This document shows, piece after piece, positions 40,717 to 49,265 of a stretch of DNA of 64,000 nt. This DNA comes from Dehalococcoidia bacterium (GTDB taxonomy: Bacteria; Chloroflexota; Dehalococcoidia; UBA2979). The stretch is taken from NCBI GenBank assembly GCA_029247135.1, contig JAQWLS010000009.1:1863-65862 (forward strand), given 5' to 3'. Position 1 is the first letter of the stretch. Each line of letters opens with the position of its first letter. A program made the position numbers and the translations under genes. The notes beneath the pieces are model-generated. The model was not told where the DNA came from, ran no database searches, and saw only the letters and a program-made list of their open reading frames with translations.

Positions 40717-41388
40717 TCACCTATAACGGTCTACAAAACGATATCCCACGTTGCGAACAGTTTCGACGAATTCTTCCTCTGATTCAATCTTTGCTCGAAT
40801 ACGACGAACATGTACATCAACCGTGCGAACACCTCCAAAATAGTCGTACCCCCAAACCTGATTTAGTAGCACTTCTCGGGTATACGGACGGCCAGGGCTA
40901 GACGCCAAAAAACGTAAAAGTGAATATTCTTTATACGTAAGATCTATTGGCTCGCCTGCAAGAGTCACCCGGTACCTATCTAAATCAATAATCAATGGCC
41001 CATGACGAAGCCGGTTATCAACGTCCGTGCCAAGACTTCTTGTTATCTGTTTCGAAATTCGTACGCGAAGCTCTTCCTGAGAAACAGGAGCCTCCACAAA
41101 ATCATCCACCTCAAGAGATCGAAGATCAGGATAAGAGCTCGACGTAACAATTAAAATAACCGATGGCGTTGCTAAAACTGCCTCGTCTCTCAAAAGCGCA
41201 GCTATACCTCCCATAGATAAGCCCATGTCCAAATCGATCAGTATCGATACTGGACGCCAAGATCGTGCCTCTTCCAAGCATTCCCGAGCAGTCGAAACAA
41301 CCTTAGACAATCGACCATCCGTGCGAGCTACTGCCTCCACATCAGCCACGTATTCCAAGTTGTTAGTTAAAGTGAGATAACCTTCCAT
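40717..41388 (-). CDS. OmpR-family winged-helix response regulator with an atypical receiver domain
   Basis: The C-terminal trans_reg_C domain (LLNQVWGYDYFGGVRTVDVHVRRIRAKIE) is present. The receiver domain lacks the N-terminal acidic DD pair, and the conserved Lys is replaced (DDFVEAP instead of DDY.xKP). No histidine kinase gene is adjacent. Confidence 0.7.
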   Translation of the reverse strand: MEGYLTLTNNLEYVADVEAVARTDGRLSKVVSTARECLEEARSWRPVSILIDLDMGLSMGGIAALLRDEAVLATPSVILIVTSSSYPDLRSLEVDDFVEAPVSQEELRVRISKQITRSLGTDVDNRLRHGPLIIDLDRYRVTLAGEPIDLTYKEYSLLRFLASSPGRPYTREVLLNQVWGYDYFGGVRTVDVHVRRIRAKIESEEEFVETVRNVGYRFVDRYR

Positions 41389-41681: not shown

Positions 41682-42329
41682 TTGGCTGTTGTGAAGGTAA
41701 TGTTTGTTGAAACTGTTGAGGGATCTGGCTCGATGGGAGACGTCAAAGACGTCAAGCCTGGGTATGCCAGAAACTATCTCTTACCAAAAGGTCTTGCTGT
41801 TCCAGCAACTCCACATGCGGTAGCGCGTGCTGAGGAGCTTCGAAGGCAAGAGCTTGAAAGACAGCAAGTGCTCGACGAGCACTACCATGAACTTGTTAAT
41901 CGGCTTACCGAAAAACCAATAATTATTGGAGTTCGGGTAGGTGAACAAGGCCGCCTCTACGGATCCGTCAATAATGCAGACATCGCTAAGAACGCTGGGG
42001 AGATTCTTGGTGAAGATCTGGACAGACGTAGAATACTTCTTGGAGAAGCTATTCGACAAGTCGGTGTCTATACTGTGCAACTTCGACTTTCTCCGAAAGT
42101 ACAACCACATATAACCGTGGTTGTAGTTGACGAGGAATCACCTGATGGTGTGGAAGCTGCTGCGCAATTGCTATTAAACCCTCCTGAAAACGTTGACCCT
42201 GCGATACCCGCAGATGATCAAACTTTTCAAGAAAACTCTGAAGAAGATTCAGGGGATAGCGTGCAGAGTATTGATACTGAAACAGAGTCTTCAAGCGCGT
42301 CGGAATCGGAATCTGAACAAGATATATAG
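41682..42329 (+). CDS. rplI: 50S ribosomal protein L9 with an acidic Ser/Glu-rich C-terminal extension
   Basis: The L9 N-domain GSMGDVKDVKPGYARNYLLPKGLAV is present. The true start is likely the GTG or ATG a few codons into the listed ORF. The tail reads ...DTETESSSASESESEQDI. Confidence 0.85.
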   Translation: MAVVKVMFVETVEGSGSMGDVKDVKPGYARNYLLPKGLAVPATPHAVARAEELRRQELERQQVLDEHYHELVNRLTEKPIIIGVRVGEQGRLYGSVNNADIAKNAGEILGEDLDRRRILLGEAIRQVGVYTVQLRLSPKVQPHITVVVVDEESPDGVEAAAQLLLNPPENVDPAIPADDQTFQENSEEDSGDSVQSIDTETESSSASESESEQDI

Positions 42330-42434: not shown

Positions 42435-43883
42435 ATGGTGAATTCAACAAGTGGCAGGCTATCTGCTTTTCCGCAACGGGATCGAACCGTCGAAAGCTCC
42501 ACTAACCGCTTACCGCCGCACGATATAAGTGCCGAAGAGGCTGTGATAGCAGCGATTTTACTGGATGACAGTGCCTTGGTCCGAGCATCCGCCATTGTTA
42601 ATACTGATGATTTCTTTGATGTATCGTGCAGAGCTGCATTTGAGGCAAGCCTATTATTAGAAGAACGTGCAGAAGAAATTACTGCGACCACTGTCAGTCA
42701 TGAACTAGAAAGATTGGGGCTTCTTGATTCCGTCGGCGGTGAGAGATTCTTAGCAGAAGTAATCGGTAAACACTTCACTGCTGAAGGAGTAGAGGCCCAT
42801 GCCCGAATAGTACGGCGAGATGGTCTGTATCGTCAGGCCATTGAAGGCTTCAATTTATTGCTCCAGAAAGCTTATGAAGGAGGCTCGAATCAAGAGTCTG
42901 TAATTGCAATGGCCGAAGAACTCCTCTTAAATATTAGAGGCGCAGTGGGTTCCGGTGATTTTAAGCACATCGGGCTCATATTAGAAGAAATGCTTGAAAA
43001 CGCGGACAACGATGAAAACTTGTCACTTCGAGCGGTGGCAAGTGGATTTCATGACCTGGATGCGCAACTTAATGGCGGGTTTCAAAGAGGCAATCTAATA
43101 GTAGTTGCGGCTCGGCCGGGACATGGAAAATCTGCTTTACTTCTAAATTTCGCGCGTCACTGCGCCGTGGAATCTACAGGGACAGTCGCTCTATTTTCAA
43201 TGGAAATGGCTGGAATCGAACTAGGAAAAAGGTTGCTCGCATCTGAATCTGGTATCGCCTCCCCAAAACTTGTTTATGACGATGATCATGCAATTGAACT
43301 AGCAAAAGTTATGGCTGCGCACGGACAACTCTCAGAAGCGTCAATTTATATTAATGAGCAAGGAGATCTTACTGTCGCCGAAATTCGGGCGGCAGCCAAA
43401 CGAATGAAAGCTGAACACGGATTAGATCTACTAATTGTGGACTACCTGCAGCTTGTGAGTAGTTCACAAAGATACGACTCTCCGGTGGCTAGTGTTACTC
43501 AAATATCACGAACTCTCAAACAAATTGCTCGCGAATTAGATGTTCCGGTGATAGCTGCAGCACAGCTAAACCGAGCGGTCGAGCAACGAAAACCTCACAT
43601 ACCAATTTTATCTGACTTGCGTGAATCAGGTTCGATCGAGCAGGACGCAGACATTGTTATGTTCATATATAGAGAATCGGAATACCACAAAAGCGAAGAT
43701 CCACAAGATTGGCCTCCAGATCTTGATCCACGACAGGCCAAAATAATTGTCGCAAAACATAGAAATGGAGCTACAGGGGTTATTGACTTGCACTGGGAAG
43801 AAACTTTGGCAACGTTCAAAGAATATGAACTCTATGCTGATTCTCCAACAGGACCAATAGAAAATGGCTTTGAGAGCTTCTAA
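42435..43883 (+). CDS. dnaB: Replicative DNA helicase
   Basis: The DnaB N-terminal motif (PPHDISAEEAVIAAILLD) and the RecA-like C-terminal domain are present, with Walker A (RPGHGKSALLLNFA), Walker B (LLIVDYLQL) and SGSIEQDADIVMF. No intein. Confidence 0.9.
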   Translation: MVNSTSGRLSAFPQRDRTVESSTNRLPPHDISAEEAVIAAILLDDSALVRASAIVNTDDFFDVSCRAAFEASLLLEERAEEITATTVSHELERLGLLDSVGGERFLAEVIGKHFTAEGVEAHARIVRRDGLYRQAIEGFNLLLQKAYEGGSNQESVIAMAEELLLNIRGAVGSGDFKHIGLILEEMLENADNDENLSLRAVASGFHDLDAQLNGGFQRGNLIVVAARPGHGKSALLLNFARHCAVESTGTVALFSMEMAGIELGKRLLASESGIASPKLVYDDDHAIELAKVMAAHGQLSEASIYINEQGDLTVAEIRAAAKRMKAEHGLDLLIVDYLQLVSSSQRYDSPVASVTQISRTLKQIARELDVPVIAAAQLNRAVEQRKPHIPILSDLRESGSIEQDADIVMFIYRESEYHKSEDPQDWPPDLDPRQAKIIVAKHRNGATGVIDLHWEETLATFKEYELYADSPTGPIENGFESF

Positions 43884-44643
43884 CACAGCTCAAAACATTA
43901 TGAATGATCCAAGTAAGTTCGATAAAAAAGTACTCTTTCATACTGGTCAAGCTGTTATACCCGTGCCTGTACAATTCTTCACCGAGATTCTCTTAAATAT
44001 AGAAGATGAAGCTGAACTAAGAGTTGCTCTTTATATTTGGTATGCAATCACGCGAAAAGTAGGTGGTCAACGCTTCATCCTCGAATCTGATATCACAAAT
44101 GACCCACTACTTGCGAACTGGTTTACACATAAAGGTGGCACTGAAAGGCTTTTAAGCTCAATTGACTTGACTCGAAAAAGAGGGCTGTTTATAGGAGCGG
44201 AGTTACCAAATAAAGACTTCGTACTCCTCCCCAACGATGAGGCGGGCCAGAGACTTCTCGATAGATTTATCATGGATTCAGAAGTACTACACGACCAAGT
44301 ACAGGCAACCACACCAGTCAGAAATCAAACTACGTCAGCACGATCGCCGGTTGCGATTAAGTACGAGCAGGAAATAGGGATCATAACTCCATCAATCGCG
44401 ACTACACTTCAGAATTCAGAGAGTCGCTACCCCATGAATTGGATACTTGAGGCAATCTCGGTGGCGGCTGAATCAAATGCTAGATCTTGGCGATATGTAC
44501 AAACAATTCTAGAAAATTGGCAGAAGAACGGACGAAATAATGGCAACCAGAAAACTACACGAATTCCTACCGAAAAATCAGGAAACCACAGAAGCCCCTA
44601 CGACGACCTCATTCGAAAAGGAAATGATCATATCAAATCGTGA
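43864..44643 (+). CDS. DnaD-domain replication initiation/membrane-attachment-like protein
   Basis: An N-terminal winged-helix-like region (LRVALYIWY) and a C-terminal DnaD-type motif (ARSWRYVQTILENW) are present. It overlaps the dnaB stop and the downstream loader gene. Confidence 0.6.
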   Translation: MALRASNTAQNIMNDPSKFDKKVLFHTGQAVIPVPVQFFTEILLNIEDEAELRVALYIWYAITRKVGGQRFILESDITNDPLLANWFTHKGGTERLLSSIDLTRKRGLFIGAELPNKDFVLLPNDEAGQRLLDRFIMDSEVLHDQVQATTPVRNQTTSARSPVAIKYEQEIGIITPSIATTLQNSESRYPMNWILEAISVAAESNARSWRYVQTILENWQKNGRNNGNQKTTRIPTEKSGNHRSPYDDLIRKGNDHIKS

Positions 44644-45925
44644 GCGAGTAGCTGTCTGCTTAGTTTGCGATGATATGGGATTTGTCAGAGTGACGAATAA
44701 TATTGAGGATTCCCGCTTTGGACAATCTTATCCGTGCAGCTGCACAATCACCGCTCGACATGAAAGAGCTGGGAAACAACTTCTGAATCAATCAGGTTTA
44801 GGATCTCTCCGTAGACTGAATTTCGAAAACCTCATTAGCCACGGAAGGACTCAAGACGCCAAAAATCGAGATCAGTACGAGCTAGCCGTCAAAGAAGCAA
44901 AAAAATATGCAAATGAGCCGAACAAGTGGCTCACAATTATTGGAGAACACGGAAGTGGTAAAACACATATAGCCGCAGCAATTGCAAATGCCTCTCTCAG
45001 CCTCGGACGACCAACTTTGTTCTTTTCAATTCCCGACTTGATGGAGCATCTCCGCCGAGAATCACTCGGGAGAGATTTTCCTGAATCTGAAACGATGACG
45101 GTCGATCGAATATTTAATATCCCGCTATTGATTATCGATGATTGTCACTCCAAAATAAATACAACCTGGGCACAAGAAAAATTCAACCAACTTCTTAATC
45201 ACCGATGGAATGCCCAGCTGCCGACAGTTTTCACCACGCCGACTCTGGACAAAAGCATAGGTACGCGCCTGAATATTAGACTCTCAGATAACGAATCTTC
45301 AGATATTTTAGATCTAGGAATTTGGGAAACAAGCACCTACAGCTCATTAGGTGCTATGACTGAACAAGTGATCAAACAATATACGTTCGATAATTTTCTC
45401 TCGGATGGTATTGGCCTGTCTCCCCAGCAAAGCAGTGAACTGATAGGGCTGGAATCCCGCTTGAGAGAGTGGTCAATCGAACCCGATGGTTGGATTGTAC
45501 TCACAGGTAAGCATGGCGTAGGAAAAACACATCTTGCCTCAGCCATTGCAAACGTTCGCTTACATCAAGGTGATCGTGTTGCGTTTACGACCGTACCCGA
45601 TCTTCTAGACCACCTCCGAGCATCATATAACCAAGACTCACAAGACTCGTACGACCAAGTATTCCGACGTTTATTGGAAGTCCAATTACTTATTCTGGAC
45701 GATCTAGGAGCTCATAAATCCTCCGATTGGGCTGAAGAGAAAATATATCAATTAATAAATCATCGATATCTTGCCCGCAGCTGGACCGTCATAACAATGA
45801 ACGGAAAACCGAGCGAACTAGAACCACGTCTAGCAAGTAGGCTAACTTTTACTGAACTCTCTGAGGTATATAGAGTAGACGCACAAGACTTCAGAACACT
45901 GCGACCCGAAACTGAAGCTAGTTAG
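44624..45925 (+). CDS. Helicase-loader-like protein with two tandem DnaC/DnaI (IstB-type) AAA+ domains and an N-terminal Cys cluster
   Basis: Walker A x2 (GEHGSGKTH and GKHGVGKTH). Walker B x2 (LLIIDDCHSK, degenerate, and canonical LLILDDLGAHKSSDWAEEKIYQLINHRY). The N-terminus reads CLVCDDMGF...SYPCSC. The start is taken at the ATG at 44624 (aaaggaa RBS); the ORF track allows 44540. Confidence 0.7.
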   Translation: MIISNRERVAVCLVCDDMGFVRVTNNIEDSRFGQSYPCSCTITARHERAGKQLLNQSGLGSLRRLNFENLISHGRTQDAKNRDQYELAVKEAKKYANEPNKWLTIIGEHGSGKTHIAAAIANASLSLGRPTLFFSIPDLMEHLRRESLGRDFPESETMTVDRIFNIPLLIIDDCHSKINTTWAQEKFNQLLNHRWNAQLPTVFTTPTLDKSIGTRLNIRLSDNESSDILDLGIWETSTYSSLGAMTEQVIKQYTFDNFLSDGIGLSPQQSSELIGLESRLREWSIEPDGWIVLTGKHGVGKTHLASAIANVRLHQGDRVAFTTVPDLLDHLRASYNQDSQDSYDQVFRRLLEVQLLILDDLGAHKSSDWAEEKIYQLINHRYLARSWTVITMNGKPSELEPRLASRLTFTELSEVYRVDAQDFRTLRPETEAS

Positions 45926-48059: not shown

Positions 48060-49265
48060 TTGGTGCAACTCACTAACACAGGACCTACACTTCAAGCCCT
48101 AATCATGTTCGGTGGCATGGGTGGAAAACCTGCGGAAACATTAATGCGAGAGGCTCTAGAAGCCGCAGCAACTGATCTAGCTCAAATATGCCATCAAAGT
48201 GGAGAATTCACTGATATCACTATTCTTGCTGACTCGCCGATCGACGCTCTGGACGAGAAAATCCTGTCCCAGCAACTATCTGATCCCAACGCCGCTTTCG
48301 GAAATCTTATTAATCAATTTTCACAATCCCTCAAGCAAAAAACTACAAATACCGACGGTTACGTATACTTTGGAGCCGGAAGTGGGCCCCTACTCGACTC
48401 CAAAGATATCCAAATAATGACCAAATCCCTGAATAAAGCTAAACCGAATAGCTGCATCACCAACAATCGTTATTCCGCCGATTTTTTTGGTATAAGACCA
48501 ACTAATCTCCTAGAGTCACTCCAACCACCACCAATAAGTGACAACGTTGTACCTATTCGATTGAGCGACGAAAGCGGAACCTCTGTGATTGAAATACCTC
48601 GATCTGCCAAAACTCAATTCAATATTGACGTCCCTTCTGACTTGGCAACACTATCGCTAATAAGGAAATCTGGACCGAAACTAGAAGCATTTATTGCACA
48701 AAAAAACGAAGTTCTCAATCCAGCAGCTCGCGCCCAATGGCACGCATCTCAGCACTTCCTCAAAAGAGACTCAGAGGTTTTTATTTATGGCAGAACTTCC
48801 TCCCGGGTTTGGTCATACCTTGAAACTGAGACTGCTTGCAAAATAAGAATAATATCTGAAGAACGGGGGCTCAAAAGTGCCCGCAAAGGGCACCAAGCCC
48901 GTTCAATTCTCGCCTATTTAATACAGGCGTACGGACCACAAGAAGTTTTCTGTAAATTGCTTCCCCAGTTTTGTTCGGCTGCATTCGTCGACTTAATACC
49001 AATCATTGAACATATGGAACTTGCCTGCAGCAGAAGCGATCGGTTTTCAGCTGACTTGTTCCAGCACGATAACATCGAAAATGAATTACTTAGAGAAATA
49101 ATCGTTGCAATTACCGAGTCACCTATACCAATAGCGTTAGGAGGGCACTCATTAGTAAGTTCGAGTCTGGAGATACTAAATCAATTAGTATGGGATGTAG
49201 CAGATAATTTGATTCCAAACCCAATGAAGGATTCATACTCGTCTACTTCCAAGACAGAACTGTAG
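48060..49265 (+). CDS. Hypothetical protein (possible nucleotidyltransferase-like N-terminus)
   Basis: 401-aa ORF. The N-terminus ALIMFGGMGGKP weakly resembles the glycine-rich loop of MobA/NTP-transferase folds. There is no confident family assignment. Confidence 0.35.
   Translation: MVQLTNTGPTLQALIMFGGMGGKPAETLMREALEAAATDLAQICHQSGEFTDITILADSPIDALDEKILSQQLSDPNAAFGNLINQFSQSLKQKTTNTDGYVYFGAGSGPLLDSKDIQIMTKSLNKAKPNSCITNNRYSADFFGIRPTNLLESLQPPPISDNVVPIRLSDESGTSVIEIPRSAKTQFNIDVPSDLATLSLIRKSGPKLEAFIAQKNEVLNPAARAQWHASQHFLKRDSEVFIYGRTSSRVWSYLETETACKIRIISEERGLKSARKGHQARSILAYLIQAYGPQEVFCKLLPQFCSAAFVDLIPIIEHMELACSRSDRFSADLFQHDNIENELLREIIVAITESPIPIALGGHSLVSSSLEILNQLVWDVADNLIPNPMKDSYSSTSKTEL

Follow-up and report, generated by a model that had tools for sequence, protein, structure and literature searches.

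We analysed a 64,000-nucleotide stretch of a Dehalococcoidia bacterium genome (contig JAQWLS010000009.1, phylum Chloroflexota), hereafter called the window, in which the genes rplI and dnaB are followed by a dnaD-like gene and by a gene encoding a helicase loader with two AAA+ modules. We consider it likely that this rplI-dnaB-dnaD-like-loader locus is the resident chromosomal helicase-loading unit, composed of a DnaI-type loader and a DnaD-like partner, and that the loader is a covalent and asymmetric AAA+ pair. The four open reading frames (ORFs) lie head to tail on the plus strand, and the DnaB helicase encoded there is the presumed client of the loader. The genes are as follows:

Positions 41682 to 42329, plus strand: rplI, ribosomal protein L9, the first gene of the string (Pfam Ribosomal_L9_N and Ribosomal_L9_C).
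Positions 42435 to 43883, plus strand: dnaB, replicative helicase (Pfam DnaB, E 2.5e-22; DnaB_C, E 1.7e-86).
Positions 43900 to 44643, plus strand: dnaD-like gene (Pfam DnaB_2; TIGR01446 DnaD_dom); the ORF opens at 43864 and the likely start is Met13.
Positions 44540 to 45925, plus strand: tandem-AAA+ helicase-loader gene, 461 amino acids (two IstB_IS21 stretches; PRK08116).

The initial annotation of this DNA had placed a DnaD-domain gene and a loader directly after rplI-dnaB, and had described the loader as two tandem DnaC/DnaI-type AAA+ modules behind a cysteine cluster. Both statements proved correct. The Pfam family IstB_IS21 matched the loader in two separate stretches (E 1.3e-30), and the two halves of the protein align with each other at 34% identity over 167 amino acids (E 7e-32), which is far beyond chance. 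The only curated NCBIfam model passed by the loader was PRK08116, with 207 bits summed over the two stretches against a cut-off of 189. The scores fell below the cut-offs of the DnaC equivalog NF005931 (105.8 vs. 357), the DnaI equivalog NF006505 (104 vs. 228) and the IS21 helper model IS21_help_AAA (132.6 vs. 200). A comparison of the loader family profile with the PDB revealed similarity to Escherichia coli DnaC (6qel, E 4.6e-25), DnaI (4m4w, E 2.8e-24) and Aquifex DnaC (3ec2, E 9e-22). The loader thus belongs to the initiator AAA+ clade and is of the DnaI/DnaC type, with PRK08116 as its closest curated model. All of the 135 homologues examined contain two AAA+ modules per chain, whereas a typical loader contains one. 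The elements of the loader chain are as follows:

Positions 44540 to 44569, plus strand: N-terminal short motif MATRKLHEFL (residues 1-10), with the family form M-E/K-x-L/I-x-E/D-I-L-K/R.
Positions 44651 to 44749, plus strand: four-cysteine cluster C40, C43, C66 and C68, a putative zinc ribbon and helicase-binding domain.
Positions 44801 to 45325, plus strand: AAA+ module 1, residues 88-262, with Walker A GSGKTH at 138-143, Walker B DD at 200-201, and R243/R247.
Positions 45362 to 45904, plus strand: AAA+ module 2, residues 275-455, with K329, D387/D388, N421, R430/R434 and R452.

The state of the ATPase sites was deduced by assigning residue roles from E. coli DnaC. In that protein, K112 belongs to Walker A, E170 to Walker B, N203 is sensor I, R216 the Arg-coupler, R220 the Arg-finger and R237 sensor II, and K143/F146/S177/Y179 form the tetrad that binds single-stranded DNA (ssDNA) (Puri et al. 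2021, PMC8213410). Mutation of any of K112, E170, N203, R220 and R237 abolishes the DnaC ATPase activity, and N203A and R237D each do so alone (PMC8213410). The full set is found in module 2 of the window protein: K329 (Walker A), D387/D388 (Walker B), N421 (sensor I), R434 (Arg finger) and R452 (sensor II). In module 1, only Walker A, Walker B and the Arg finger are found. Over the 135 full-length proteins, the Walker A Lys is invariant in both modules (135/135 each). The Walker B Asp-Asp pair is nearly so: D200 is found in 135 and D201 in 132 of the proteins in module 1, and the corresponding residues of module 2 in 134 and 134. The R-x3-R pair is conserved in module 1 (R243, 123/135; R247, 126/135) and in module 2 (R430, 105/135; R434, 129/135). 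Equivalents of the ssDNA-binding tetrad are also found in both modules, namely R172 (133/135) and R360 (135/135), T208 (131/135) and S/T395 (130/135), and W210 and W397, which correspond to DnaC Y179 and occur in 135/135 each. Because the P-loop, the Walker B Asp-Asp, the R-x3-R pair and the tetrad equivalents are all kept, both modules are expected to bind ATP, to touch ssDNA and to supply an arginine to the site next to them.

The two modules differ in their sensors. The initial annotation had suspected that module 1 is inactive on account of a degenerate Walker B, reading DDCH (residues 200-203) in place of the DDLG of module 2 (residues 387-390). This reason does not hold. DDCH is not a broken Walker B, because the hhhhDD core is intact and its Asp-Asp is near-invariant; just the two residues after the acidic pair deviate, and only in the small clade of the window protein. 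The suspicion itself is probably correct for this lineage on different grounds, namely Pro234, the missing sensor II Arg and faster evolution. N421 of module 2 aligns with N203 of E. coli DnaC, and the equivalent residue in module 1 is Pro234. The sensor II motif of module 2, AQDFR with R452, has no counterpart in module 1, which reads LGIWETS. With Pro234 in place and the sensor II Arg missing, module 1 of the window protein is probably a nucleotide-binding but hydrolysis-impaired module. The clade of the window protein is the most asymmetric one, with an intramolecular identity of 0.30-0.33 compared with up to 0.65 in Anaerolineae, and its module 1 diverges faster than its module 2 (52% vs. 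74% identity to P0005).

The sensor I Asn is distributed unevenly over the family. Of the 135 proteins, 47 have it solely in module 1 and 38 solely in module 2, while 45 lack it altogether and 5 have it in both modules. In the Anaerolineae-type proteins, unlike the window protein, the module without this Asn is module 2. The sensor II motif of module 1 follows a similar distribution, being found in 38 of the 47 proteins with the Asn in module 1 only and in 2 of the 83 proteins in the groups without a module 1 Asn.

The AlphaFold2 model of the loader has a mean predicted local distance difference test score (pLDDT) of 85.6 and a predicted template-modelling score (pTM) of 0.66. It consists of low-confidence residues 1-34, a small Cys-bearing beta element, a long helix and two alpha/beta modules. 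Single modules were similar to the PDB folds of Aquifex DnaC (3ecc, template-modelling (TM) score 0.79), DnaI (2w58, 0.75) and E. coli DnaC (6qem_G, 0.62); DnaA and IstB were also among the fold matches, and the root-mean-square deviations (rmsd) were 2.5-4 Å over all of these and 2.5-3.3 Å for DnaC, DnaI or DnaA. Two-module ATPases superposed on the whole model gave TM scores of about 0.3 and rmsd values of 12-19 Å (about 17 Å for p97/Cdc48). The loader is thus not a Type II (two-ring) AAA+ protein of the p97/NSF/ClpB kind, since the stacked D1/D2 arrangement is unmatched at a TM score of about 0.3.

The N-terminal short motif of the loader is kept in homologues with just 35-45% identity, where it reads MKxLxEIL or MExIxEILK. 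Because the motif is common to these homologues, we placed the start at 44540, which gives a protein of 461 amino acids. The initial annotation had left the length at 433-461 amino acids; the longer form stands and the 433-residue start is discarded. The motif is a candidate docking peptide, and about 25 residues of variable linker come after it (pLDDT < 50 for residues 11-34). A similar start, MKNLKDFV, was observed on the single-module relative from an Anaerococcus plasmid. Beyond the linker, the cysteines follow the pattern C40-x2-C43 ... C66-x-C68 and are kept in 131-135 of the 135 homologues. In the alignment of the family profile with the DnaI chain 4m4w_J, C-x2-C and a single later Cys fall on the N-terminal part of DnaI. 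A Pfam scan of the first 104 residues of the loader at E values up to 10 gave no match to any family, DnaI_N included. This N-domain may be a homologue of the DnaI zinc domain, and the four-Cys domain is best described as a putative zinc ribbon and a candidate helicase-binding domain.

The product of the gene upstream of the loader gene is a DnaD-like protein, whose elements, together with the overlap of the two genes, are listed below:

Positions 43969 to 44277, plus strand: winged-helix-like N-terminal domain, model residues 24-126 (AlphaFold2 pLDDT 85-97).
Positions 44362 to 44541, plus strand: DDBH2 (DnaD C-terminal) domain with the motif Y211-x3-I215-x3-W219 (Pfam, residues 167-226).
Positions 44540 to 44643, plus strand: overlap of the dnaD-like 3' end and the loader 5' end, 104 nucleotides, out of frame (from the ORF coordinates).

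The DnaB_2/DnaD_dom match covers residues 167-226 of this protein with 39.1 bits against a cut-off of 22, and TIGR01446 DnaD_dom matches as well. In the family alignment of the DnaD-like protein, termed A2, the Met13 column is invariant, so that the most likely start is Met13 at nucleotide 43900. Y211 is also invariant, and I215 and W219 are kept in at least 90% of A2. The YxxxIxxxW motif is a DNA-binding signature (Marston et al. 2010, PMC2978336). The family profile hits Bacillus subtilis DnaD (8ojj, E 3e-9) over the DDBH2 domain only. The AlphaFold2 model of the DnaD-like protein has a pLDDT of 81.7, and its N-domain has the layout helix-helix-helix-hairpin-helix. A Foldseek search with the model revealed weak, non-significant matches, all of them winged-helix proteins (best E 0.016); against the PDB there was nothing at E ≤ 0.001 and no DnaD-N match. 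The N-domain gave no Pfam match at E values up to 10 and no PDB sequence-profile match. Many DnaD-like orthologues end in the tail Y-x-x-G-K-Y-G-H-L-V-x-R, for which the window (44590-44640) has SPYDDLIRKG; a terminal helix is predicted at low confidence in this C-terminal tail.

An overlap of the dnaD-like and loader genes was found at 54 of the 56 loci with a placeable loader start. It measures 44-155 nucleotides with a mode of 80-86, every length being 2 mod 3, and the conserved motif of each protein sits over a variable stretch of the other. The unusual length and the conservation of this overlap suggest translational coupling of the two genes.

To see how far this arrangement extends, homologues were searched for in a collection of 5.8 billion proteins and in a scan of one genome per GTDB species. 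The protein search gave more than 120 homologue clusters with 35-89% identity to the loader, nearly all of 400-480 amino acids and with about 90% query coverage. Where the clusters are named, the names are "ATP-binding protein" (Dehalococcoidia, Chloroflexota, Anaerolineales) or "DnaC". The species scan gave 569 relatives, and the locus counts below refer to the best 80 of them, all of which span both modules. The finding is broader than the initial annotation had supposed. According to their record titles, the 80 loci come from Dehalococcoidia, Anaerolineae, Chloroflexia, Ardenticatenaceae, Caldilineaceae, Tepidiformaceae, Promineifilaceae, Dehalogenimonas and Anaerolinea thermophila. By tblastn, the loader gene is immediately preceded by a dnaD-like gene at 78 loci, dnaB lies upstream of the loader gene at 72 and the order dnaB, dnaD-like, loader is kept at 70. 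An rplI match upstream of dnaB was found at 52 loci, and all four genes at 50. Among the 8 loci without a dnaB match, 4 end at a contig edge. The tandem form is the standard loader architecture across Chloroflexota and not a peculiarity of one genome. It was absent from 50,697 phage records, 72,556 plasmid records and the BFVD set of viral structures, in which only single-module relatives were found.

Some individual loci deserve mention. Two metagenome-assembled genome records carry titles from outside Chloroflexota. L001, titled Acidimicrobiia bacterium, has the full string of dnaB, dnaD-like gene and tandem loader and is the closest species-level match to the window loader (47% identity); L009, titled Proteobacteria bacterium, has rplI, dnaB and the loader gene with no detectable dnaD-like gene. 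Both bins are likely mislabelled or contaminated. L009 and L043 are the only 2 of the 80 loci at which tblastn found no dnaD-like match between dnaB and the loader gene, and the gap is too short for one. These may be natural adaptor-less cases, or the adaptor may be encoded elsewhere. In L043 (1780-4380), L047 (3292-5211) and L056 (2358-5093), the dnaB match is in two pieces lying about 0.5-1.3 kb apart within the C-terminal domain, a pattern that points to inteins in DnaB. At L067 (2965-5284), the pieces are about 100 nucleotides apart and overlap in their query parts, which suggests a second partial dnaB copy and not an intein.

Databases already contain the gene family, and a 2016 survey counted it as dna[CI]. 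Of the 15 Chloroflexi genomes in that survey, every one had a single dna[CI] gene, except Herpetosiphon with three, and none had dciA; the Chloroflexi dna[CI] was treated as one domestication event (Brezellec 2016, PMC5109545). Neither the body of that paper nor its supplement was found to mention a duplication. No account of a tandem or duplicated DnaC/DnaI loader or of a Chloroflexi DnaD was found in the literature searched, whose coverage leaves out most subscription journals. Within it, the tandem architecture, the phylum-wide operon, the swapped sensor loss and the long gene overlap appear to be undescribed.

We then considered the origin of the two modules. The 135 full-length proteins were split into 270 modules and a neighbour-joining tree was built. 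The nearest neighbour was of the same module type for 269 of the 270, and the bipartition of the tree separates the same number. The mean identity between module 1 and module 2 is 0.445, and that of either module to five single-module relatives (Bacillus phage IEBH gp09 and plasmid genes of Anaerococcus, Aerococcus, Alicyclobacillus and 'Ca. Chlorohelix') is about 0.30. The higher identity between the modules, about 45% compared with about 30% to the single-module relatives, therefore favours an old internal duplication of the AAA+ unit, earlier than most of the radiation of the phylum. A fusion of two different loader paralogues was considered as well and is disfavoured by the same identities. 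We relied on the identities because the neighbour-joining tree with single-module outgroups was not robust (12 of 50 bootstraps, with a numerical warning).

The single-module relatives also bear on where the pair came from. The relatives from IEBH, Anaerococcus, Aerococcus and Alicyclobacillus have a clear C-x2-C ... C-x-C N-terminus. In Bacillus phage IEBH, gp08 and gp09 (L083, 558-2109) are adjacent genes annotated as "DnaD-like" and "DnaC-like helicase loader", with a 20-nucleotide overlap and a single AAA+ module. The gene pair and its order are those of the dnaD-like and loader genes of the window. The DnaD-like/DnaI-like pairing noted in the initial annotation is real. Because of the shared Cys N-terminus and the IEBH gene order, the Chloroflexota pair appears to be a mobile-element DnaD/DnaC module that became fixed and later had its AAA+ unit doubled.

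The system resembles the DnaI and DnaD of B. subtilis and Geobacillus in that a Cys-containing putative zinc N-domain is followed by an initiator-clade AAA+ domain. The profile alignment with DnaI 4m4w runs from C-x2-C through the AAA+ domain, the fold of 2w58 is matched at the TM score given above, and the partner has the DDBH2 domain and the YxxxIxxxW motif of Bacillus DnaD. It differs from DnaI in having two AAA+ modules per chain, in missing the DnaI equivalog and in the absence of a Pfam DnaI_N match. It further differs from Bacillus in that the operon has one gene of the DnaD/DnaB family, with no separate Bacillus-type DnaB co-loader seen, and in that the loader and dnaD-like genes lie inside the helicase operon with a long conserved overlap. 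The best sequence and fold matches per module are with the DnaC proteins of E. coli and Aquifex aeolicus (6qel and 3ecc), and equivalents of K112, the Walker B acidic pair, N203, R216/R220, R237 and the tetrad of E. coli DnaC can be identified. DnaC, however, has a helical, non-zinc N-domain and a single AAA+ domain and acts in a 6:6 complex. The module is here doubled, with one copy lacking the sensor residues, and the DnaC equivalog cut-off is far from reached. The PRK08116-type loaders of Firmicute phages and plasmids (IEBH gp08/gp09, Anaerococcus prevotii pAPRE01) share the MKxLxDF-type start, the C-x2-C ... C-x-C pattern and the AAA+ domain. They differ in having a single AAA+ domain and 263-300 amino acids, share about 30% identity with the Chloroflexota modules, and are borne by mobile elements and not beside chromosomal dnaB. 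With IS21 IstB the loader shares the AAA+ clade and the Pfam family name, but it has no IstA partner, a sub-cut-off score and a place in a replication operon.

By analogy with Bacillus, the DnaD-like protein would link DnaA and the origin to the loader. The zinc domain of the loader would bind DnaB, and the AAA+ modules would form an ATP-dependent open spiral on ssDNA that keeps the helicase ring open. Because an AAA+ site consists of a P-loop, sensors and the arginine of a neighbour, chains with one complete and one sensor-less module would produce alternating catalytic and structural sites. In the simplest stoichiometry, each DnaB hexamer would receive its six AAA+ modules from three chains, and catalytic ATP sites would alternate with non-catalytic ones. 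The clamp loader RFC, ORC-Cdc6 and the D1-D2 modules of p97/NSF likewise combine catalytic modules, in alternation or in pairs, with modules that bind nucleotide but hydrolyse it poorly; these, however, are separate subunits or stacked rings of other AAA+ clades, and the likeness is one of analogy only. We put forward, only tentatively, a fuller model in which the loader acts as a trimer of covalent AAA+ pairs, with three zinc domains and six modules per DnaB hexamer and with alternate sites catalytic. In this model, the catalytic module would be swapped between classes (module 1 in the Anaerolineae type, module 2 in the Dehalococcoidia type) by reciprocal subfunctionalisation after one ancient duplication, and the overlap of about 80 nucleotides would enforce coupled synthesis of adaptor and loader.

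Several points weigh against this picture. The 3:6 stoichiometry is reasoned and not observed. The evidence on the Chloroflexota family consists of sequences and models, and the pTM of the loader model is 0.66. The loss of the sensor I Asn is no proof of inactivity, because Ser, Thr or Asp serve as sensor I in other AAA+ proteins. The case for a DnaI-type zinc domain at the N-terminus is weak, being a profile alignment without a DnaI_N match in Pfam. At four loci, dnaB is not adjacent although at least 3.6 kb of sequence is available upstream. Finally, the bootstrap for a clean split of modules 1 and 2 is poor (1 of 30 for the full split, 5 of 30 within three taxa of it), and partial gene conversion between the modules is possible in some lineages, with the intramolecular identity reaching 0.65 in Anaerolineae.

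A different stoichiometry with the same loader identity would have six tandem chains per DnaB hexamer attached through six zinc domains, with the twelve modules arranged as two layers or as a longer ssDNA filament. It would agree with the 6:6 complex of E. coli DnaB and DnaC, in which each helicase subunit has one helicase-binding domain (PMC8213410). The tetrad equivalents in both modules mean that both could line a DNA filament, and IstB, a structural relative whose decamer holds DNA clamped between its two pentamers, offers a loose precedent. The stacked-ring p97/Cdc48 fits the model poorly, though (rmsd about 17 Å, TM about 0.3), and the inter-module linker is short. In addition, the restriction of the sensor I Asn to a single module in 85 of the 135 proteins fits alternating sites in one ring or spiral better than two equivalent layers. 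These points are not decisive, and on balance we regard the twelve-module arrangement as rather unlikely. We find it improbable that the pair is a domesticated phage or plasmid replication module with a role away from oriC, in restart or mobile-element control, while another route loads the chromosome. The closest single-module relatives do occur in mobile-element replication modules such as the adjacent pair of phage IEBH, Firmicute plasmids have an "ATP-binding protein" gene beside the replication initiator gene, and the Chloroflexi dna[CI] has been described as a domestication event (PMC5109545). However, a phage origin is compatible with a present role in chromosomal loading. The pair is fixed beside chromosomal rplI-dnaB in classes across the phylum and has housekeeping flanks here, and 15 of 15 surveyed Chloroflexi genomes have dna[CI] and are without dciA (PMC5109545).

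The initial annotation had itself named two explanations that would undo it, namely that module 2 is a remnant of an IS21 IstB and that the tandem is an assembly artefact. Both, like a gene-calling artefact from fused genes or an expanded repeat, now have practically no probability left. Both stretches of the loader do carry the Pfam label IstB_IS21, but this is the generic name of an AAA+ family. An IS21 remnant is ruled out by the sub-cut-off IS21-helper score and by the neighbours of the loader, which are DnaD-like, MoaE, ThiS-family and major facilitator superfamily (MFS) genes; no IstA or transposase was found among the neighbouring genes in the window. An independent ENA assembly contains the same region with 99.4% identity over 8780 nucleotides and without gaps, and the same architecture is found in the homologue clusters and at the 80 genome loci described above. 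The only DNA-level repeat inside the loader gene is 32 nucleotides long, lies over both Walker A motifs and has 84% identity, and the halves are merely 34% identical as protein. With only this short repeat within the gene, the duplication is old and not an assembly expansion. Assembly collapse or expansion and a fused gene call are thus ruled out by the independent assembly, the orthologues and the divergence of the halves. Our preferred reading remains a chromosomal loading unit built on a tandem, asymmetric loader.

In the window, the four genes are flanked by a glutamine-synthetase-like gene and genes for an OmpR-type regulator, MoaE, a ThiS-family protein, an MFS transporter and serine hydroxymethyltransferase, as identified with Pfam. 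A scan for promoters and terminators gave no enrichment over shuffled sequences. The OmpR-type regulator (40717-41388, minus strand) has a Trans_reg_C match only, at residues 145-218. Its N-terminal 140 residues gave no Response_reg match at E ≤ 1e-4, and may form an atypical or degenerate receiver. An ORF of 401 amino acids upstream of glyA (48060-49265, plus strand) had no Pfam match at E ≤ 1e-4.

Knowledge of bacterial helicase loading comes for the most part from E. coli DnaC and Bacillus DnaI, joined more recently by DciA, all with one functional unit per chain. A whole phylum, with abundant marine, subsurface and dechlorinating bacteria among its members, appears to use instead a fused loader with two AAA+ modules, one of them partly degenerate, an architecture concealed by the database names "ATP-binding protein" and "DnaC". 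Because the proteins are small and look soluble, and because Anaerolinea, Dehalococcoides and Chloroflexus are cultured hosts, the predictions are directly testable. The family offers a natural experiment on how many ATP sites a loader needs, on how an asymmetric loader opens a six-fold ring and on the possible stoichiometry of helicase and loader. It also extends the DnaD-plus-DnaI logic beyond Firmicutes, with what looks like a phage-type DnaD/DnaC module fixed beside the chromosomal dnaB.

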